From Escherichia coli (lineage in GTDB: Bacteria > Pseudomonadota > Gammaproteobacteria > Enterobacterales > Enterobacteriaceae): a stretch of DNA of 64,000 nucleotides. The DNA lies in the NCBI RefSeq assembly GCF_003334305.1, contig NZ_QOWS01000016.1. One strand, written 5' to 3'. The notes below the pieces were generated by a model. The model was given only the letters and a program-made list of their open reading frames with translations. It was not told where the DNA came from and did not search any database. A program made the translations under genes and the position numbers. Positions 5,172 through 58,800 of this stretch are shown here, one piece after another (within the stretch, counting starts at the first letter, position 1; each line of letters opens with the position of its first letter).

Positions 5172-5259
5172 GTTCACTGCCGTACAGGCAGCTTAGAAAT
5201 CGACGGGGTGCGGTAAAACCTTTGCGAACGCGTTCACTGCCGTACAGACAGATAAAATG
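5172..5259 (+). CRISPR. Orphan type I-F CRISPR remnant: 2 repeats flanking one 32-nt spacer, no cas genes in window
   Basis: Repeat 1 5172-5199 GTTCACTGCCGTACAGGCAGCTTAGAAA (canonical I-F repeat); spacer 5200-5231; repeat 2 5232-5259 GTTCACTGCCGTACAGACAGATAAAATG (22/28 identical, degenerate terminal repeat). Confidence 0.85.
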
Positions 5260-12642: not shown

Positions 12643-15600
12643 TTGAGCCAGGAATACACTGAAGACAAAGAAGTCACATTGACAAAGTTAAGTAGCGGCC
12701 GTCGCCTTCTGGAAGCGTTGCTGATCCTTATTGTCCTGTTTGCCGTCTGGTTGATGGCTGCCTTACTAAGCTTTAACCCTTCGGACCCCAGCTGGTCGCA
12801 AACGGCCTGGCATGAACCTATCCATAATTTAGGTGGGATGCCCGGTGCGTGGCTGGCAGATACGCTGTTCTTTATTTTTGGCGTGATGGCTTACACCATT
12901 CCCGTCATTATTGTCGGCGGTTGTTGGTTTGCCTGGCGTCATCAGTCCAGTGACGAATACATTGATTATTTTGCCGTTTCGCTACGCATCATTGGCGTTT
13001 TGGCGCTCATCCTTACCTCCTGTGGTCTGGCGGCAATCAACGCTGACGATATCTGGTATTTTGCCTCCGGTGGCGTCATTGGCAGCTTACTAAGCACTAC
13101 GCTACAACCACTGCTACACAGTAGCGGGGGAACTATTGCGCTGCTCTGCGTTTGGGCTGCGGGCCTGACGCTGTTCACCGGTTGGTCATGGGTGACCATT
13201 GCTGAAAAACTCGGCGGCTGGATTTTAAACATTCTCACCTTCGCCAGTAATCGTACCCGTCGCGATGATACCTGGGTCGATGAAGATGAATATGAAGATG
13301 ACGAAGAGTATGAAGATGAAAACCACGGCAAACAGCATGAATCACGCCGTGCCCGTATTCTTCGCGGCGCGCTAGCGCGTCGTAAACGGTTGGCGGAAAA
13401 ATTCATTAATCCGATGGGGCGGCAAACAGACGCTGCGTTGTTCTCCGGTAAGCGGATGGATGATGACGAAGAGATTATCTACACTGCACGCGGTGTGGCT
13501 GCCGACCCGGACGACGTCCTATTTTCGGGCAATCGTGCAACGCAGCCAGAATATGACGAATACGATCCATTATTAAACGGTGCGCCAATTACCGAACCTG
13601 TCGCTGTAGCAGCTGCTGCTACCACGGCGACACAAAGCTGGGCTGCGCCGGTTGAACCTGTGACTCAGACGCCGCCTGTTGCCTCTGTTGATGTTCCACC
13701 TTCGCAACCTACAGTAGCCTGGCAGCCTGTACCGGGTCCACAAACGGGAGAGCCGGTTATTGCTCCTGCACCGGAAGGTTACCCACAGCAGTCACAATAT
13801 GCGCAGCCTGCAGTGCAATATAATGAGCCGCTGCAACAACCAGTACAGCCGCAGCAGCCGTATTATGCACCTGCAGCTGAACAACCTGCGCAACAACCTT
13901 ACTACGCTCCTGCGGCGGAACAACCTGTTCAGCAACCGTATTACGCCCCTGCGCCAGAACAACCGGTGGCAGGTAACGCCTGGCAAGCCGAAGAGCAGCA
14001 ATCCACTTTTGCTCCACAGTCTACATACCAGACTGAGCAAACTTATCAGCAACCAGCCGCTCAGGAGCCGTTGTACCAACAGCCGCAATCCGTTGAACAG
14101 CAGCCTGTTGTGGAGCCTGAACCCGTTGTAGAAGAGACAAAACCCGCGCGTCCGCCGCTTTACTATTTTGAAGAAGTGGAAGAGAAGCGAGCCCGTGAAC
14201 GTGAACAACTTGCGGCCTGGTATCAACCGATTCCAGAACCGGTTAAAGAACCAGAACCGATCAAATCTTCGTTGAAAGCGCCTTCTGTTGCAGCAGTACC
14301 TCCAGTAGAAGCCGCTGCCGCTGTTTCTCCGCTGGCATCTGGCGTGAAAAAAGCGACACTGGCGACGGGGGCTGCCGCAACCGTTGCCGCGCCAGTCTTC
14401 AGTCTGGCAAATAGCGGTGGACCGCGTCCGCAAGTCAAAGAGGGGATTGGCCCGCAGTTGCCACGACCGAAACGTATCCGCGTGCCAACTCGTCGTGAAC
14501 TGGCGTCTTACGGTATTAAGCTGCCCTCACAGCGTGCGGCGGAAGAGAAAGCCCGTGAAGCCCAGCGCAATCAGTATGATTCTGGCGATCAGTATAACGA
14601 TGATGAAATCGATGCGATGCAGCAGGATGAACTGGCACGTCAGTTCGCCCAGACACAGCAGCAACGCTATGGCGAACAGTATCAACATGATGTGCCCGTA
14701 AACGCAGAAGATGCAGATGCTGCGGCAGAGGCTGAACTGGCTCGTCAGTTTGCGCAAACTCAACAACAACGTTATTCCGGCGAACAACCGGCTGGGGCGA
14801 ATCCGTTCTCGCTGGATGATTTTGAATTTTCGCCAATGAAAGCGTTGCTGGATGATGGTCCACACGAACCGTTGTTTACGCCAATTGTTGAACCTGTACA
14901 GCAGCCGCAACAACCGGTTGCACCGCAGCAGCAGTATCAGCAGCCGCAACAACCAGTTCCGCCACAGCAGCAATATCAGCAGCCGCAACAGCCGGTTGCG
15001 CCGCAGCCGCAGTATCAGCAGCCACAACAGCAGGTTGCGCCGCAGCCACAATATCAGCAGCCGCAACAACCGGTTGCGCCACAGCCGCAATATCAGCAGC
15101 CGCAACAACCAGTTGCGCCGCAGCCGCAGTATCAACAGCCGCAACAACCGGTTGCACCGCAGCAGCAGGATACCCTGCTTCATCCGCTGTTGATGCGTAA
15201 TGGCGACAGCCGTCCGTTGCATAAACCGACGACGCCGCTGCCTTCTCTGGATTTGCTGACACCGCCGCCGAGCGAAGTGGAGCCGGTAGATACCTTTGCG
15301 CTTGAACAAATGGCTCGCCTGGTGGAAGCGCGTCTGGCTGATTTCCGTATTAAAGCCGATGTCGTCAATTACTCTCCGGGGCCGGTTATCACTCGCTTTG
15401 AACTTAACCTGGCTCCTGGCGTAAAAGCGGCGCGCATTTCTAACTTGTCACGGGACCTTGCCCGTTCACTTTCGACGGTGGCGGTGCGTGTCGTTGAAGT
15501 TATTCCTGGCAAACCCTATGTAGGTCTGGAGTTACCAAATAAAAAACGACAAACCGTTTATCTGCGCGAAGTTTTGGATAACGCCAAATTCCGCGATAAT

Positions 15601-20213: not shown

Positions 20214-20237
20214 TACCCAATTTTTCTGAATCTAAAA

Positions 20238-20260
20238 AGCGCCTGCGGGCGCTTTTTTTG
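20238..20260 (+). terminator. Rho-independent terminator of serS
   Basis: AGCGCC-TGCG-GGCGCT hairpin followed by TTTTTTTG. Confidence 0.8.
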
Positions 20261-20267
20261 TCTCCCT

Positions 20268-20281
20268 TTGATACCGAACAA
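20268..20281. promoter_or_regulatory. Candidate FNR site in dmsA promoter
   Basis: TTGATaccgAACAA matches TTGAT-N4-ATCAA at 9/10 positions, about 170 bp upstream of the dmsA ATG. Confidence 0.5.
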
Positions 20282-20451
20282 TAATTACTCCTCACTTACA
20301 CGTAATACTACTTTCGAGTGAAAATCTACCTATCTCTTTGATTTTCAAATTATTCGATGTATACAAGCCTATATAGCGAACTGCTATAGAAATAATTACA
20401 CAATACGGTTTGTTACTGGAATCAATCGTGAGCAAGCTTGAGTGAGCCATT

Positions 20452-46114: not shown

Positions 46115-47863
46115 ATGCATAACGACAAAGATCTCTCTACGTGGCAGACGTTCCGCCGACTGTGGCCAACCATTGCGCCTTTTAAAGCGGGTCTGATCGT
46201 GGCGGGCGTAGCGTTAATCCTCAACGCAGCCAGCGATACCTTCATGTTATCGCTCCTTAAGCCACTTCTTGATGATGGCTTTGGTAAAACAGATCGCTCC
46301 GTGCTGGTGTGGATGCCGCTGGTGGTGATCGGGCTGATGATTTTACGTGGTATCACCAGCTATGTCTCCAGCTACTGTATCTCCTGGGTATCAGGAAAGG
46401 TGGTAATGACCATGCGTCGCCGCCTGTTTGGTCACATGATGGGAATGCCGGTTTCATTTTTTGACAAACAGTCAACGGGGACGCTGTTGTCACGTATCAC
46501 CTACGATTCCGAACAGGTTGCTTCTTCTTCTTCCGGCGCACTGATAACGGTTGTGCGTGAAGGTGCGTCAATCATCGGCCTGTTCATCATGATGTTCTAT
46601 TACAGTTGGCAACTGTCGATCATTTTGATTGTGCTGGCACCGATTGTTTCGATTGCGATTCGCGTAGTATCGAAGCGTTTTCGCAACATCAGTAAAAACA
46701 TGCAGAACACCATGGGGCAGGTGACCACCAGCGCCGAACAAATGCTGAAGGGCCACAAAGAAGTATTGATTTTCGGTGGTCAGGAAGTGGAAACGAAACG
46801 CTTTGATAAAGTCAGCAACCGAATGCGTCTTCAGGGGATGAAAATGGTTTCAGCCTCTTCCATCTCTGATCCGATCATTCAGCTGATCGCCTCTTTGGCG
46901 CTGGCGTTTGTTCTGTATGCGGCGAGCTTCCCAAGTGTCATGGATAGCCTGACTGCCGGTACGATTACCGTTGTTTTCTCTTCAATGATTGCACTGATGC
47001 GTCCGCTGAAATCACTGACCAACGTTAACGCCCAGTTCCAGCGCGGTATGGCGGCTTGTCAGACGCTGTTTACCATTCTGGACAGTGAGCAGGAGAAAGA
47101 CGAAGGTAAGCGCGTGATCGAGCGTGCGACTGGCGACGTGGAATTCCGCAATGTCACCTTTACTTATCCGGGACGTGACGTACCTGCATTGCGTAACATC
47201 AACCTGAAAATTCCGGCAGGGAAGACGGTTGCTCTGGTTGGACGCTCTGGTTCAGGTAAATCAACCATCGCCAGCCTGATCACGCGTTTTTACGATATTG
47301 ATGAAGGCGAAATCCTGATGGATGGTCACGATCTGCGCGAGTATACCCTGGCGTCGTTACGTAACCAGGTTGCTCTGGTGTCGCAGAATGTCCATCTGTT
47401 TAACGATACGGTTGCTAACAACATTGCTTACGCACGGACTGAACAGTACAGCCGTGAGCAAATTGAAGAAGCGGCGCGTATGGCCTACGCCATGGACTTC
47501 ATCAATAAGATGGATAACGGTCTCGATACAGTGATTGGTGAAAACGGCGTGCTGCTCTCTGGCGGTCAGCGTCAGCGTATTGCTATCGCTCGAGCCTTGT
47601 TGCGTGATAGCCCGATTCTGATTCTGGACGAAGCTACCTCGGCTCTGGATACCGAATCCGAACGTGCGATTCAGGCGGCACTGGATGAGTTGCAGAAAAA
47701 CCGTACCTCTCTGGTGATTGCCCACCGCTTGTCTACCATTGAAAAGGCAGACGAAATCGTGGTCGTCGAGGATGGTGTCATTGTGGAACGCGGTACGCAT
47801 AACGATTTGCTTGAGCACCGCGGCGTTTACGCGCAACTTCACAAAATGCAGTTTGGCCAATGA
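46115..47863 (+). CDS. msbA: msbA, lipid A/LPS flippase ABC transporter (582 aa)
   Basis: 6-TM domain plus ABC ATPase ([17 protein letters not shown]). Confidence 0.96.
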
Positions 47864-50166: not shown

Positions 50167-51092
<926 letters not shown>

Positions 51093-51245: not shown

Positions 51246-52139
51246 ATGGAACAGCTGCGTGCCGAATTAAGCCATTTACTGGGCGAAAAACTCAGTCGTA
51301 TTGAGTGCGTCAATGAAAAAGCGGATACGGCGTTGTGGGCTTTGTATGACAGCCAGGGAAACCCAATGCCGTTAATGGCAAGAAGCTTTAGTACGCCCGG
51401 AAAAGCCCGACAACTGGCATGGAAAACCACCATGCTGGCAAGAAGTGGGACTGTCCGTATGCCGACTATTTATGGTGTGATGACGCATGAAGAACACCCC
51501 GGCCCCGATGTCCTGCTACTGGAGCGGATGCGTGGTGTTTCGGTGGAGGCACCAGCCCGAACACCAGAACGCTGGGAACAACTCAAAGACCAAATCGTTG
51601 AAGCCTTACTGGCCTGGCACCGTCAGGACAGTCGCGGTTGCGTCGGCGCGGTCGACAATACTCAGGAAAATTTCTGGCCCTCATGGTACCGGCAACATGT
51701 TGAAGTGCTATGGACCACGCTCAATCAGTTCAATAACACCGGTCTGACGATGCAGGATAAGCGGATCCTGTTTCGCACTCGCGAATGTCTCCCGGCATTA
51801 TTTGAAGGCTTTAACGACAATTGTGTGCTGATTCACGGTAACTTCTGTTTACGCAGCATGTTGAAAGATTCGCGCAGCGATCAGTTACTGGCGATGGTCG
51901 GGCCGGGACTAATGCTTTGGGCACCGCGAGAATACGAACTGTTCCGACTAATGGATAATTCTCTGGCGGAAGATTTGCTCTGGAGTTACCTGCAACGCGC
52001 GCCAGTGGCGGAGTCGTTCATCTGGCGGCGTTGGTTGTATGTGTTATGGGATGAAGTTGCGCAACTGGTTAATACCGGACGATTTAGTCGGCGCAACTTC
52101 GATCTGGCATCAAAATCACTCTTGCCGTGGCTCGCCTGA
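51246..52139 (+). CDS. ycbJ: ycbJ, kinase-like (phosphotransferase-fold) protein of unknown function (297 aa)
   Basis: ORF 51246..52139; protein MEQLRAELSHLLGEKLSRIECVNEKADTALWALYD; synteny kdsB-ycbJ. Confidence 0.88.
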   Translation: MEQLRAELSHLLGEKLSRIECVNEKADTALWALYDSQGNPMPLMARSFSTPGKARQLAWKTTMLARSGTVRMPTIYGVMTHEEHPGPDVLLLERMRGVSVEAPARTPERWEQLKDQIVEALLAWHRQDSRGCVGAVDNTQENFWPSWYRQHVEVLWTTLNQFNNTGLTMQDKRILFRTRECLPALFEGFNDNCVLIHGNFCLRSMLKDSRSDQLLAMVGPGLMLWAPREYELFRLMDNSLAEDLLWSYLQRAPVAESFIWRRWLYVLWDEVAQLVNTGRFSRRNFDLASKSLLPWLA

Positions 52140-52895
52140 CGAACCTTTTAGCCACTGCCAGATACGGCCAAGCGTTTCATAGCCAACACGATCGCTATGC
52201 ATCAACCAGACCGGAGAAGGGATTGCCCGTTCCCACGGGTTAAGCGGCGAGTCGATGGCCAACTGATTCGCCGGGGCTGGTAGCGGATTTAACCCTTCCT
52301 GCTGAAAAAAGATCATCGCCCGCGGCAGATGTGATGCGGAGGTCACCAGCAGGAAAGGGGCGTCACCAATCGCCTGTTTCACTGCCGCAGCTTCTTCTTC
52401 GGTATCTTTTGGCAAATCCAGGGTGATAATTTGCTCGTGCGGCACGCCCAGCGATTGCGCAACTCTGGCACCTACTTCCGCTGTACTCACCGTATTGGTT
52501 TTTGCTACGCCTCCCGTGAAGATCAGTTTTGATCCCGGATTTTCGCGCCATAAGCGAATACCTTCATTCAGGCGTGGCAGACTGTTATTGATTAAATTAG
52601 AGCTCGGTGCCCACTGTGGGTTCCAGGTATAACCACCTCCGAGCACCACGATATAGTCCACTTTTTGCGAATTATTCCATGTCGGATAGGTGCTTTCGAT
52701 GGGACGCAGCAGGCGGTCGGCTACCGGTTGCAAACTCAATAACAAGAGTGCCAGCCACCCAATGCTAATAAAAATCTTCCCGGTTTTTTGAAAACGGCTA
52801 AACCACAGCAGCGCCAGGCCAGCGCCAATAATTAACAACATCAGCGGAAGTGGCAGCAACATATTGCCAATCACTTTTTTCAGTGTAAAAAGCAT
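52116..52895 (-). CDS. elyC: elyC (ycbC), DUF218-family envelope biogenesis protein (259 aa)
   Basis: N-terminal TM segment then DUF218-like domain; 3' end overlaps the ycbJ 3' end by 24 bp. Confidence 0.9.
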   Translation of the reverse strand: MLFTLKKVIGNMLLPLPLMLLIIGAGLALLWFSRFQKTGKIFISIGWLALLLLSLQPVADRLLRPIESTYPTWNNSQKVDYIVVLGGGYTWNPQWAPSSNLINNSLPRLNEGIRLWRENPGSKLIFTGGVAKTNTVSTAEVGARVAQSLGVPHEQIITLDLPKDTEEEAAAVKQAIGDAPFLLVTSASHLPRAMIFFQQEGLNPLPAPANQLAIDSPLNPWERAIPSPVWLMHSDRVGYETLGRIWQWLKGSSGEPRQE

Positions 52896-53030
52896 CCTTT
52901 CTGGTTCCTTTTTTAACCATATAGCAAGGGATCGCCAGCGATATTACACCAGACGGGTTCATTCTCGCCGTGGCTGTGACAAAATAGCGTCTTTATCAGA
53001 AAACGTCTTAGCCAACCGGTGGAGAAAGCA

Positions 53031-53816
53031 ATGCAGGATCGCAATTTTGATGATATTGCGGAAAAGTTTTCCCGTAACATTTACGGCACCACCAAAGGGC
53101 AGCTTCGACAGGCTATTCTGTGGCAGGATCTCGATCACGTGCTGGCGGAAATGGGCCCGCAAAAACTGCGTGTGCTGGATGCTGGCGGTGGTGAAGGGCA
53201 GACCGCAATCAAAATGGCCGAGCGTGGGCATCAGGTCATTTTATGCGATCTTTCTGCGCAGATGATCGACCGCGCAAAACAGGCGGCAGAAGCAAAAGGT
53301 GTGAGCGACAACATGCAATTTATACATTGCGCCGCTCAGGATGTTGCTTCGCATTTGGAAACGCCCGTTGATCTGATATTGTTCCATGCGGTGCTCGAGT
53401 GGGTGGCCGATCCCCGCAGTGTATTGCAGACCCTGTGGTCAGTGTTGCGTCCAGGCGGCGTGTTGTCGTTAATGTTCTACAATGCGCATGGTTTGTTGAT
53501 GCATAACATGGTCGCCGGGAATTTTGATTACGTGCAGGCGGGAATGCCGAAAAAGAAAAAACGGACGCTTTCGCCAGATTATCCACGCGACCCGGCGCAG
53601 GTTTATCTGTGGCTGGAAGAAGCTGGTTGGCAAATTATGGGTAAGACAGGCGTTCGCGTGTTTCATGATTATCTGCGCGAGAAGCACCAGCAGCGCGACT
53701 GCTATGAAGCATTACTTGAATTAGAAACGCGTTATTGCCGTCAGGAACCGTATATTACCCTGGGGCGTTATATTCATGTCACCGCGCGCAAACCGCAGAG
53801 CAAGGATAAAGTATGA
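53031..53816 (+). CDS. cmoM: cmoM (smtA), SAM-dependent methyltransferase (261 aa)
   Basis: ORF track 53019..53816 trimmed to [23 protein letters not shown]; SAM motif VLDAGGGEG. Confidence 0.9.
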
Positions 53817-55135
53817 GTGAATTTTCCCAGACAGTCCCCGAACTGGTTGCCTGGGCCAGAAAAAATGACTTCTCCATCTCGCTGCCGGTAGACCGACTCT
53901 CTTTTCTGCTGGCGGTTGCCACGCTGAACGGCGAGCGTCTGGATGGTGAGATGAGTGAAGGCGAGCTGGTGGATGCATTCCGCCATGTGAGTGATGCGTT
54001 TGAGCAAACCAGCGAAACCATCGGCGTGCGCGCCAATAACGCGATCAACGACATGGTGCGTCAACGTCTGCTGAACCGCTTTACCAGCGAGCAGGCGGAA
54101 GGGAACGCAATTTACCGTCTGACGCCGCTCGGCATCGGCATTACTGACTACTACATCCGTCAGCGCGAGTTTTCTACGCTGCGTCTTTCTATGCAGTTGT
54201 CGATTGTGGCGGGTGAGCTCAAACGCGCAGCAGATGCCGCCGAAGAGGGCGGTGATGAATTTCACTGGCACCGTAATGTCTATGCGCCACTGAAATATTC
54301 GGTAGCAGAAATTTTCGACAGTATCGACCTGACGCAACGTCTGATGGACGAACAGCAGCAGCAGGTGAAGGACGATATCGCCCAGTTGCTGAACAAAGAC
54401 TGGCGGGCGGCGATTTCCAGCTGTGAATTGTTGCTTTCGGAAACTTCCGGGACGCTGCGTGAATTGCAGGATACGCTGGAAGCGGCAGGCGACAAATTGC
54501 AGGCTAATCTGTTGCGCATTCAGGATGCGACGATGACCCATGACGATCTGCATTTCGTCGATCGTCTGGTGTTCGATCTGCAGAGCAAACTCGATCGTAT
54601 TATCAGTTGGGGCCAGCAATCCATCGACTTGTGGATTGGCTACGACCGCCACGTACACAAATTTATTCGTACCGCGATCGATATGGATAAAAACCGCGTC
54701 TTTGCTCAGCGGTTACGTCAGTCGGTACAAACCTATTTTGATGAGCCGTGGGCGCTAACTTATGCCAATGCCGATCGTCTGCTGGATATGCGTGACGAAG
54801 AGATGGCACTGCGCGATGAAGAAGTGACTGGGGAACTTCCTGAGGATCTGGAATACGAAGAGTTTAACGAGATCCGCGAACAGCTGGCGGCGATCATCGA
54901 AGAACAACTTGCCGTGTACAAAACCAGACAAGTGCCGCTGGATCTTGGTCTGGTGGTACGCGAATATCTGTCACAGTATCCGCGTGCACGTCACTTTGAC
55001 GTTGCGCGTATTGTTATTGATCAGGCGGTACGTCTTGGCGTAGCGCAAGCAGATTTCACCGGACTGCCAGCGAAATGGCAGCCGATTAATGATTACGGAG
55101 CCAAGGTACAGGCGCATGTCATCGACAAATATTGA
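53813..55135 (+). CDS. mukF: mukF, condensin kleisin subunit (440 aa)
   Basis: ATGA overlap with cmoM stop; protein [44 protein letters not shown]. Confidence 0.96.
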
Positions 55136-55820
55136 ACAAGTGATGCCGGTTAAGCTGGCGCAGGCGCTGGCGAATCCGTTATTTCCGGCGCTGGACAGCG
55201 CCTTACGTTCAGGCCGCCATATTGGCCTCGACGAACTGGATAATCATGCATTCCTGATGGATTTTCAGGAATATCTGGAAGAGTTTTACGCGCGTTATAA
55301 CGTTGAGCTTATTCGCGCACCAGAAGGGTTCTTCTATTTACGCCCACGTTCCACCACGCTGATCCCTCGTTCCGTCTTGTCGGAACTGGATATGATGGTC
55401 GGGAAAATCCTCTGTTATCTCTATCTCAGCCCGGAACGGCTGGCGAATGAGGGGATTTTCACCCAGCAGGAACTGTACGACGAACTGCTCACCCTGGCCG
55501 ATGAAGCAAAACTGCTGAAACTGGTGAACAACCGTTCAACCGGTTCAGACGTTGACCGTCAGAAGTTGCAGGAGAAAGTACGTTCTTCGCTCAACCGTCT
55601 GCGTCGTTTAGGCATGGTGTGGTTTATGGGCCACGACAGCAGCAAGTTTCGCATTACCGAATCGGTGTTCCGCTTCGGAGCCGATGTGCGTGCTGGCGAC
55701 GATCCCCGTGAAGCACAGCGTCGCCTGATTCGTGATGGCGAAGCAATGCCGATTGAAAATCATCTGCAACTCAACGATGAAACCGAAGAAAATCAGCCAG
55801 ATAGCGGAGAGGAAGAATAA
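55116..55820 (+). CDS. mukE: mukE, condensin subunit (234 aa)
   Basis: ORF track 55089..55820 trimmed to ATG 55116 ([27 protein letters not shown]); start overlaps mukF 3' end by 20 nt. Confidence 0.9.
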
Positions 55821-58800
55821 TGATTGAACGCGGTAAATTTCGCTCACTGACGCTGATTAACTGGAACGGCTTTTTTGCCCGAACTTTTGACCTTGACGAG
55901 CTGGTCACGACGCTTTCTGGCGGTAACGGGGCGGGTAAATCCACCACCATGGCGGCGTTCGTTACGGCGCTGATCCCCGACCTGACCCTGCTGCATTTCC
56001 GTAACACTACGGAAGCCGGGGCCACCAGCGGTTCGCGCGATAAAGGTCTGCACGGTAAGCTGAAAGCGGGTGTCTGTTATTCGATGCTCGACACCATTAA
56101 CTCGCGCCACCAGCGCGTGGTGGTCGGTGTGCGTCTGCAACAGGTTGCCGGACGCGATCGTAAAGTGGATATCAAGCCGTTTGCCATTCAGGGACTGCCG
56201 ATGTCGGTGCAGCCGACACAGCTGGTGACCGAAACCCTGAACGAACGCCAGGCGCGCGTGCTGCCGCTTAACGAGCTGAAAGACAAGCTCGAGGCGATGG
56301 AAGGCGTGCAGTTTAAACAGTTCAACTCCATTACTGATTACCACTCGCTGATGTTCGATCTGGGCATCATCGCGCGTCGTCTGCGCTCCGCATCTGACCG
56401 TAGCAAATTCTATCGTCTGATCGAAGCTTCGCTGTATGGCGGGATCTCCAGTGCCATTACCCGTTCTCTGCGCGACTACCTGTTGCCGGAAAACAGCGGC
56501 GTGCGTAAAGCGTTCCAGGACATGGAAGCGGCGCTGCGTGAAAACCGTATGACGCTGGAAGCGATTCGTGTCACCCAGTCGGACCGTGACCTGTTTAAGC
56601 ATCTGATCAGCGAAGCTACCAACTACGTGGCGGCGGACTACATGCGTCACGCCAACGAGCGCCGTGTCCATCTCGACAAAGCCCTGGAGTTTCGTCGCGA
56701 GTTACATACTTCGCGTCAGCAACTGGCGGCTGAGCAGTACAAACACGTCGATATGGCGCGTGAGCTGGCAGAGCACAACGGTGCCGAAGGCGATCTGGAA
56801 GCGGATTATCAGGCGGCCAGCGATCACCTGAACCTGGTGCAAACCGCACTGCGTCAGCAGGAGAAGATCGAACGCTACGAAGCGGATCTCGATGAGCTGC
56901 AGATCCGTCTGGAAGAGCAAAACGAAGTGGTGGCAGAAGCCATCGAACGCCAGGAAGAGAACGAGGCTCGCGCGGAAGCTGCCGAACTGGAAGTGGACGA
57001 GCTGAAAAGCCAGCTTGCTGACTACCAGCAGGCGCTGGACGTCCAGCAAACGCGCGCGATCCAGTATAACCAGGCGATTGCTGCGCTTAATCGCGCCAAA
57101 GAACTGTGCCATCTGCCGGACTTAACCGCCGACAGCGCCGCCGAATGGCTGGAAACCTTCCAGGCGAAAGAGCTGGAAGCGACTGAAAAAATGCTCTCTC
57201 TTGAGCAGAAAATGAGCATGGCGCAAACCGCGCACAGCCAGTTTGAGCAGGCTTATCAGCTGGTGGTGGCAATCAACGGCCCGCTGGCGCGTAACGAGGC
57301 GTGGGATGTCGCTCGCGAACTATTGCGCGAAGGGGTCGATCAGCGTCACCTGGCAGAGCAGGTTCAACCGTTGCGGATGCGCTTAAGTGAACTGGAACAG
57401 CGTCTGCGCGAGCAGCAAGAAGCCGAACGCCTGCTGGCAGACTTCTGCAAACGTCAGGGCAAGAATTTTGATATTGATGAACTGGAAGCTCTGCATCAGG
57501 AGCTGGAAGCGCGCATTGCCTCTCTTTCCGATAGCGTGTCTAACGCCCGTGAAGAGCGCATGGCACTGCGCCAGGAACAGGAACAGCTGCAGTCTCGCAT
57601 TCAGAGTTTGATGCAGCGTGCGCCGGTTTGGCTGGCAGCGCAAAACAGTCTCAACCAGTTGAGCGAGCAGTGCGGTGAAGAGTTTACCTCCAGCCAGGAC
57701 GTCACCGAATATCTGCAACAGTTGCTGGAGCGTGAGCGAGAGGCGATTGTTGAACGCGATGAAGTGGGCGCGCGCAAAAACGCTGTCGATGAAGAGATCG
57801 AACGTTTAAGCCAGCCTGGCGGCTCTGAAGATCAGCGTCTGAACGCGCTGGCGGAGCGTTTTGGCGGCGTGCTGCTGTCAGAAATTTATGACGACGTTAG
57901 CCTGGAAGATGCGCCGTACTTCTCAGCGCTGTATGGCCCGTCACGCCACGCCATCGTGGTGCCAGATCTGTCACAGGTAACTGAACACCTGGAAGGCTTG
58001 ACCGATTGCCCGGAAGATCTCTATCTGATCGAAGGAGATCCGCAGTCATTCGATGACAGCGTGTTCAGCGTTGATGAGCTGGAAAAAGCGGTAGTGGTGA
58101 AAATCGCCGATCGTCAGTGGCGTTATTCACGTTTCCCGGAAGTGCCGCTGTTTGGTCGTGCTGCGCGTGAAAGCCGTATTGAAAGCCTCCATGCCGAGCG
58201 TGAAGTGCTTTCCGAACGCTTCGCCACGCTCTCCTTTGATGTACAGAAAACTCAGCGTCTGCATCAGGCGTTCAGCCGCTTTATCGGCAGTCATCTGGCG
58301 GTTGCGTTTGAGTCTGACCCGGAAGCAGAAATCCGTCAACTGAACAGCCGTCGCGTCGAACTGGAGCGGGCGTTGAGTAATCATGAAAATGATAACCAGC
58401 AGCAGCGTATTCAGTTTGAGCAGGCGAAAGAAGGCGTTACGGCGCTGAACCGCATTCTGCCGCGTCTCAACCTGTTGGCTGATGACAGCCTGGCGGATCG
58501 CGTCGATGAAATCCGCGAACGTCTGGATGAAGCCCAGGAAGCCGCGCGTTTTGTTCAGCAGTTTGGCAATCAACTGGCGAAACTGGAACCGATCGTTTCG
58601 GTATTGCAGAGCGACCCGGAACAGTTCGAACAGCTAAAAGAAGATTACGCGTACTCTCAGCAGATGCAGCGCGATGCCCGTCAGCAGGCGTTTGCCCTGA
58701 CGGAAGTGGTGCAGCGTCGTGCGCACTTTAGCTATTCTGACTCGGCAGAAATGCTGAGCGGTAATAGCGATCTCAACGAAAAGCTGCGTGAACGTCTGGA

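Follow-up and report, generated by a model that had tools for sequence, protein, structure and literature searches.

The window investigated here, a stretch of 64,000 nucleotides of Escherichia coli DNA (contig NZ_QOWS01000016.1), contains the genes cmoM, mukF, mukE and mukB, which encode a tRNA methyltransferase and the three subunits of the condensin complex MukBEF, and whose coding regions overlap at each of their three junctions. The locus is the textbook E. coli smtA(cmoM)-mukFEB operon, whose overlaps are already part of the public annotation, and it holds nothing that is new in kind. In the interpretation that we favor, and to which we assign a probability of about 65%, translation in this known operon is at least partially coupled at the junctions, with the ratios of the products being set by initiation strengths. 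Our analysis adds to the existing description the invariance of a 20-nucleotide overlap between mukF and mukE across the Enterobacterales, an extreme synonymous constraint around this overlap and a double ATG at the N-terminus of MukE.

CmoM, MukF, MukE and MukB each show a full-length match to an NCBIfam equivalog profile with scores far above the curated cut-offs. Their genes are arranged in the order cmoM-mukF-mukE-mukB on a single strand without intergenic gaps, as apparent from the window sequence and the RefSeq annotation. Several RefSeq E. coli chromosomes match the region between positions 52900 and 56100 with 100% identity, and a search of 5426 complete E. coli genomes recovered it in every one of them. 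The RefSeq gene limits in an identical genome agree exactly with the junctions read in the window. The operon was already described in the 1990s (Yamanaka et al. 1995/1996, as cited in PMC4255302, PMC3871593 and PMC9239193). A preliminary description of the window had remarked that the operon starts with an unrelated methyltransferase gene, which is borne out by the equivalog match of CmoM, by RefSeq and by the published operon (PMC4255302; PMC3871593; PMC4737166): CmoM is a tRNA cmo5U methyltransferase (PMC4737166) and not a subunit of MukBEF. The elements of the operon, including its Shine-Dalgarno (SD) motifs, are the following:

52896-53030, plus strand: intergenic region between elyC and cmoM with the operon promoter, placed there by promoter replacement (PMC7163298) and not by assigned -35 and -10 elements, and the SD motif GGAG of cmoM (53023-53026); blocks at about 52910-52925 and 52945-52990 are conserved in 76 species.
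53031-53816, plus strand: cmoM (smtA), first gene of the operon, tRNA cmo5U34 methyltransferase of 261 residues (NF008264 equivalog, 503 bits against a cut-off of 366; RefSeq; PMC4737166).
53802-53816, plus strand: cmoM/mukF junction with the SD core AAGGA (53802-53806) followed by ATGA (53813-53816).
53813-55135, plus strand: mukF, kleisin subunit of 440 residues (NF003615 equivalog, 845 bits against a cut-off of 407, full length; RefSeq).
55091-55145, plus strand: mukF/mukE junction block with the SD-like motifs GGAG (55097-55100) and AAGG (55103-55106), ATG at 55116, dual-coding region 55116-55135, stop at 55133-55135 and ATG at 55143.
55116-55820, plus strand: mukE, 234 residues at the annotated start (NF003602 equivalog, 412 bits against a cut-off of 250; RefSeq).
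55806-55822, plus strand: mukE/mukB junction with the SD motif GGAGAGGAAG (55806-55815) followed by TAATG (55818-55822).
55820-60280, plus strand: mukB, SMC-like ATPase subunit of 1486 residues (NF003422 equivalog, 2647 bits against a cut-off of 699, full length; RefSeq).
60285-60316, plus strand: hairpin resembling an intrinsic terminator (60285-60306; nine pairs, six of them G-C) with a T-rich tail, five nucleotides past the mukB stop.

The literature supports the view that cmoM-mukFEB constitutes a single transcription unit. In E. coli, a common lifetime was determined for every segment of smtA-mukFEB, which was handled as a single long transcript (PMC4332155), the unit is confirmed by long native Nanopore RNA reads in Dickeya (PMC9239193), and replacement of the native promoter upstream of smtA by Para controls and raises the level of MukBEF (PMC7163298). 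A smtA-mukFEB operon was also predicted in Vibrio fischeri (PMC3948606). In a scan of positions 51500-61000, the hairpin following mukB is the strongest terminator-like element, with those located within the operon being weaker (5-7 pairs, 3-4 of them G-C). The same consensus scan, a type of analysis that provides weak evidence, revealed no promoter inside the operon, and no strong sigma-70 consensus match was detected on the plus strand between 52896 and 53030. An Rfam scan of the whole window gave no match in the cmoM-mukFEB operon. Independent internal promoters, which the preliminary description had named as speaking against coupling, thus have little in their favor, with the exception of an island of synonymous constraint inside cmoM that is described below.

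The chain of overlaps is present in the window as it had been described. The stop codon TGA of cmoM (53814-53816) and the start codon of mukF (53813-53815) share the sequence ATGA in a 4-nucleotide overlap, the ATG of mukE (55116-55118) is located 20 nucleotides before the end of the mukF stop codon TGA (55133-55135), and the last base of the mukE stop codon TAA (55818-55820) is the first base of the mukB start codon (55820-55822), resulting in TAATG with an overlap of a single nucleotide. Every downstream gene has its SD motif within the 3' end of the gene preceding it, at a distance from the start of 6 nucleotides for AAGGA (mukF), 15 and 9 nucleotides for GGAG and AAGG (mukE) and 4 nucleotides for GGAGAGGAAG (mukB), with predicted duplex energies between -5.2 and -6.6 kcal/mol. 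Individually, ATGA and TAATG are unremarkable, since unidirectional E. coli gene pairs are most often spaced by -4, and next by -1 and -8 (707 of 2987 pairs are found within -8 to +6; PMC10666635), and since 21 of the 48 genes in the window (44%) carry NTGA at their start. The operon accounts for three of the five overlapping junctions among 36 pairs of same-strand neighbors in the window. Further 4-nucleotide ATGA overlaps were observed in msbA/lpxK and ycaR/kdsB, at 47860-47863 and 50346-50349, and the junctions of cydD/cydC (0 nucleotides) and dmsB/dmsC (+1 nucleotide) are also tight.

To place the junctions into an evolutionary context, we have scanned one genome per species, which provided 80 loci from Enterobacteriaceae with MukE proteins that are at least 89% identical. 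In each locus, the four genes were located by tblastn and extended to their stop codons. Gene order and the cmoM/mukF junction were readable in the 71 loci that reach far enough upstream, and in all of them the order cmoM-mukF-mukE-mukB is kept. Across this family, mukF and mukE overlap by 20 nucleotides in 79 of 79 species, and the downstream genes start with ATG throughout the 80 loci. Between mukE and mukB, 64 species show a distance of -1, 11 of -4 and 5 of -8; between cmoM and mukF, 32 species show -8, 30 show +3 and 9 show -4. The C-terminal tails of CmoM and MukE are poorly conserved and shift in frame and length, yet they end within -8 to +3 of the next start. The coding regions of mukF and mukB open with ATGAGTGA and ATGATTGA, respectively, each with a TAA a few nucleotides upstream, and these starts thus offer a stop codon in any frame within the same range. 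We have considered such off-frame stops as a special signal and rejected the idea: 4 of the 48 window genes are built likewise, which leaves the arrangement suggestive but not exceptional. Among 76 species, the motif AAGGA in front of mukF shows no variation, and in nearly all 80 the mukB ATG is preceded by a core of the GGAG type, which typically reads GGAGAGG or GGGGAGG.

Beyond this family, junctions were sampled individually from cluster representatives, with distances taken as called on the contigs and the junction sequences read. The gene order is also kept in Erwinia, Rahnella and the insect symbiont Ca. Symbiodolus, whose MukE is 61% identical, with distances (cmoM/mukF, mukF/mukE, mukE/mukB) of -8, -20 and 0 in Erwinia, -4, -20 and -4 in Rahnella and -8, -20 and -7 in Ca. 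Symbiodolus. Among the sampled loci, the 20-nucleotide overlap was encountered only in Enterobacterales, and the adjacency of mukE and mukB is widespread. We have also encountered several MukE homologues (P0127, P0129, P0130, P0133 and P0136) that are 46-58% identical to E. coli MukE and have a length of 380-575 residues compared to about 235, the match being limited to the first 215 residues or so; in locus L091, which encodes P0130, the neighboring MukF is also long (518 residues) and the genes are separated by about 100 nucleotides at the junctions.

The conservation of the mukF/mukE junction extends to synonymous positions, which we have analyzed in codon alignments that contain about 77 distinct sequences for each gene by a permutation test with 20000 permutations. 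As background, about 5% of the degenerate codons of these genes are represented by a single codon, and the mean third-position entropy is 0.92-1.01 bit. In a region comprising codons 427-436 of mukF and 1-10 of mukE, the mean entropy drops to 0.04 bit compared to a gene mean of 0.92 bit, a value reached in none of the permutations. The windows of lowest entropy are codons 423-440 of mukF (0.04-0.06 bit) and codons 1-10 of mukE (0 bit in the first eight), which both are located at the shared junction. Codons 427-433 of mukF, situated upstream of the overlap and thus not dual-coding, are all invariant. The constraint in 55091-55145 is the strongest of its kind in mukF and mukE, and synonymous entropy is also depressed at the 5' ends of mukF and mukB and at the 3' end of cmoM. 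As judged from these alignments, the mukE initiation region within mukF is under strong purifying selection, a constraint that is silent on whether initiation is coupled.

The size of the overlap depends on the assignment of the mukE start. The open reading frame starts at 55089 and contains three in-frame ATG codons at 55089, 55116 and 55143. The overlap of 20 nucleotides follows from taking 55116 as start; a start at 55143 would leave a spacer of 7 nucleotides instead. Structural work uses two MukE N-termini, with a protein of 234 residues (start 55116) in PDB entry 3EUH and of 225 residues (start 55143) in 7V8P and 3RPU. The ATG at 55089, corresponding to the longest open reading frame, lacks an SD motif and is missing from 23 of 79 species, which leaves 55116 and 55143 as the only candidates. 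If MukE truly began at 55143, the chain of overlaps would be broken and mukE would be translated by downstream reinitiation after the mukF stop. In line with such a start, the ATG at 55143 (Met10) is invariant in Enterobacteriaceae and also found in Photorhabdus, Erwinia and Rahnella, the synonymous invariance reaches exactly to this codon, its location 7 nucleotides past the mukF stop is a good distance for reinitiation, structures have been solved with the shorter protein, and residues 3 and 5 of MukE vary through changes that are silent in mukF. However, only 55116 is preceded by an SD-like motif (GGAG/AAGG), with an upstream duplex energy of -5.8 kcal/mol compared to -1.8 and -0.2 kcal/mol for the other two ATG codons, the latter value belonging to 55143. 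The ATG at 55116 is also invariant in 79 of 79 species of Enterobacteriaceae, which forces the codon of His435 in mukF to remain CAT and never CAC, and the frozen synonymous sites start about 25 nucleotides upstream of 55116, where the ribosome-binding site for this start would be located. Moreover, an N-terminal extension of MukE without methionine at position 10 is found in Ca. Symbiodolus, which shares the 20-nucleotide overlap, in a Pasteurellaceae locus resembling Actinobacillus porcinus and in Haemophilus ducreyi, and both the RefSeq start (55116) and the match to the NCBIfam profile, which opens three residues later, precede Met10, the profile match by a wide margin. The comparative evidence thus favors 55116 as the start of mukE, and we regard an exclusive start at 55143 as highly improbable. 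Irrespective of this assignment, MukE contains two invariant in-frame ATG codons (Met1 at 55116 and Met10 at 55143), the second of which is absent outside the Enterobacterales, and AUG 55143 may serve as an additional start.

The case for coupling draws on experiments with other E. coli gene pairs. Of five native pairs with a distance of -4, four were coupled, and removal of the SD motif reduced reinitiation in four of the five (PMC6728339). Genes for subunits of heteromeric complexes are 4.5-fold overrepresented at tight junctions (PMC6728339; PMC10666635), and a spacing of about 20 nucleotides nearly abolishes coupling (PMC10666635). Judged by their sequence, two of the three muk junctions would belong to the same termination-reinitiation class: the distances of cmoM/mukF (-4) and mukE/mukB (-1) are located within the range of -8 to +10 between stop and start, with mukF/mukE (-20) being found outside. 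Subunits of the same heteromeric complex are joined at mukF/mukE and mukE/mukB (PMC4255302) but not at cmoM/mukF (PMC4737166). Since four of five native -4 pairs are coupled and coupling falls steeply with distance, termination-reinitiation is likely to take place at ATGA and TAATG, and the overlaps probably help to link the translation of the four genes.

A plausible mechanism would start from one mRNA extending from the promoter upstream of cmoM to the terminator just past mukB. At the ends of cmoM (ATGA) and mukE (TAATG), a ribosome would terminate on the next start codon and reinitiate there with the help of the SD motif, and passing ribosomes might also keep the junction unfolded for the binding of fresh 30S subunits. 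At the mukF/mukE junction, the terminating ribosome would halt 17 nucleotides past the mukE AUG, and ribosomes on the last mukF codons would cover the mukE initiation site. Here, coupling would more likely proceed by local unfolding or short back-diffusion combined with SD-directed de novo initiation. In this way, the overlaps could keep the four products co-expressed, with the Muk subunits made side by side.

Several observations weigh against coupling at these junctions. Folds of 80 nucleotides around each of the three junctions do not exceed those of shuffled sequences in stability (z = +1.6, 0.0 and -1.3), and the predicted cost of opening positions -18 to +12 at mukF, mukE and mukB (9.6-10.1 kcal/mol) corresponds to the median of the 48 window genes. 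RNAalifold applied to 60 unique junction sequences provided a consensus structure that differed from the single-sequence folds, with almost no informative pairs and a negligible covariation term of -0.84 kcal/mol. As the region is too conserved for a covariation test, these results constitute absence of evidence and not evidence of absence, and RNA structure was dropped as an explanation of coupling. According to current views, coupling in E. coli is strict when free 30S subunits are blocked from binding the internal SD motif (PMC6728339), and local structures preventing de novo initiation are not predicted at any of the three junctions. As each start contains an accessible SD motif without significant sequestering structure, nothing is predicted to block independent initiation. 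In the same direction point the drift of the exact overlaps between species at cmoM/mukF and mukE/mukB, the location of the mukF/mukE overlap outside the experimentally validated range and the result of our search of a paper library, in which we found neither a coupling experiment on this operon nor ribosome profiling of the muk genes. In addition, the Pasteurellaceae locus mentioned above has distances of +34 between mukF and mukE and -1 between mukE and mukB, and metagenomic relatives show pairs of +85/-1, -8/-4, -32/-11 and +100/+103 at the same two junctions. The spacers of +34, +85 and +100 between mukF and mukE and of +103 before mukB imply that overlap is not needed for the function of MukBEF.

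These observations lend weight to a scenario in which gene packing and neutral drift of stop codons gave rise to the overlaps as a side effect, with independent SD-directed initiation, ratios set by the individual ribosome-binding sites and coupling that is weak or absent. An SD-like motif of its own precedes each downstream gene at a suitable distance and with average predicted accessibility, without significant RNA structure at the junctions, the stops of cmoM and mukE hop among three frames and positions in close relatives, and ATGA overlaps arise easily in view of the abundance of NTGA at gene starts. Non-overlapping junctions in other lineages, the required E:F ratio of 2:1 and the pair bioBF, the one of the five tested -4 pairs that was uncoupled (PMC6728339), are equally in line with this scenario. 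Against neutral drift stands the fact that in about 80 species the upstream stops at cmoM/mukF and mukE/mukB are never found beyond -8 to +3 of the next start. With coupling being nearly lost at a spacing of about 20 nucleotides, such confinement is the pattern expected from selection for termination near the start. The invariance of the mukF/mukE overlap and the coupling of four of the five tested pairs also argue against independent initiation, which we consider unlikely, though still to be reckoned with. A different challenge concerns the first junction, which would be functionally irrelevant if mukFEB were also or mainly transcribed from a promoter inside cmoM and the condensin genes were uncoupled from the latter. 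Codons 89-102 of cmoM (53295-53335) form the strongest island of low synonymous variation within this gene (0.26 bit compared to 1.01 bit, reached in 0 of 20000 permutations on 76 sequences from Enterobacteriaceae). The island contains the motif AAAGGTGTGAGC-N3-AACATGCATTTT(A/G)TACAATGCGCCGCTCAGGA, with a hexamer resembling the -10 element TACAAT in most species and TACATT in E. coli, and it could constitute a promoter (internal or antisense), a binding site or a start codon within the gene, at Met95. A promoter at this position would agree with the Pasteurellaceae locus, where mukF is not preceded by cmoM. Against it stand the consensus scan, which found no promoter at the island, the lack of a convincing -35 element, the weaker hexamer in E. 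coli and the three experimental results that support a single transcription unit, namely the common lifetime of the smtA-mukFEB segments (PMC4332155), the full-length reads in Dickeya (PMC9239193) and the effect of the promoter swap upstream of smtA on MukBEF levels (PMC7163298). We thus view transcription of mukFEB from a promoter within cmoM, be it additional or predominant, as very unlikely.

Partial coupling, the interpretation that we prefer, does not extend to a role of the overlaps in fixing the stoichiometry of the products, a claim of the preliminary description that was overstated. In the absence of ATP, MukBEF assembles as MukB2:E4:F2 (PMC4255302), a composition that deviates from equimolarity, and the complex does not include CmoM. 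A simple 1:1 reinitiation cannot alone set these ratios, since MukE is needed at about twice the rate of MukF. The geometry of the overlaps thus cannot account for a subunit ratio of 1:2:1, which must originate from individual initiation strengths and not from the overlaps as such. As a speculation to which we attribute very little probability, the block 55091-55145 might act as a ratio-setting device, with MukE being started de novo at AUG 55116 and additionally by reinitiation from the mukF stop at AUG 55143. If true, this double initiation would supply MukE and MukF at a ratio of about 2:1, as needed for B2E4F2, and would generate two N-terminal isoforms of MukE.

Other features of the window are located outside the operon. 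Between clpA and a tRNA-Ser gene, two 28-nucleotide repeats matching the Rfam family CRISPR-DR4 (5172-5259) are found 60 nucleotides apart with one spacer. They represent a CRISPR array of minimal size and of the orphan type, since cas genes are absent from its surroundings in the window. The serS-dmsA intergenic region contains a full-length Rfam match to the enterobacterial small RNA STnc130 (20227-20361, minus strand, 140 bits), and a match to the small RNA ES036 (63889-63932, plus strand) is barely above the gathering score (38.5 compared to 37.6 bits). Upstream of the operon, the convergent genes ycbJ (51246-52139, plus strand) and elyC (52116-52895, minus strand) overlap by 24 nucleotides at their 3' ends (52116-52139). 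Finally, in ftsK (about 14900-15180), mapping of unique window 25-mers onto E. coli M8 reveals a transient register shift of 39 nucleotides, which suggests differences in repeat units of the FtsK linker region between strains.

Beyond providing a good annotation, these results matter little, as the link between short overlaps, coupling and heteromeric complexes is already established. Their practical consequence concerns the mukF/mukE overlap and its flanks, where sequence constraint across the Enterobacterales is among the highest in the operon, and 55091-55145 should thus be left intact when mukF or mukE are recoded, tagged or deleted.

Compared to the classical E. coli smtA(cmoM)-mukF-mukE-mukB operon, the locus shows no structural difference: the DNA, the four genes, their order and strand and the annotated overlaps are the same. 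The resemblance to the termination-reinitiation pairs characterized by Huber et al. (2019, PMC6728339; 2023, PMC10666635; reviewed in PMC12548453) includes the co-directional -4 and -1 overlaps and the placement of the SD motif inside the upstream 3' end, as seen at the starts of mukF, mukE and mukB. In those pairs coupling was measured, whereas the muk pairs are known here from their sequence. They differ also in the length of the mukF/mukE overlap (20 nucleotides), in a first gene, cmoM, whose product is not a subunit of the complex and in a subunit ratio that is not 1:1:1. The Smc-ScpAB loci of most other bacteria likewise encode functionally equivalent SMC, kleisin and accessory subunits, but smc is there usually located in a different operon than scpA-scpB, whereas mukF, mukE and mukB are always found in one operon (PMC4255302).

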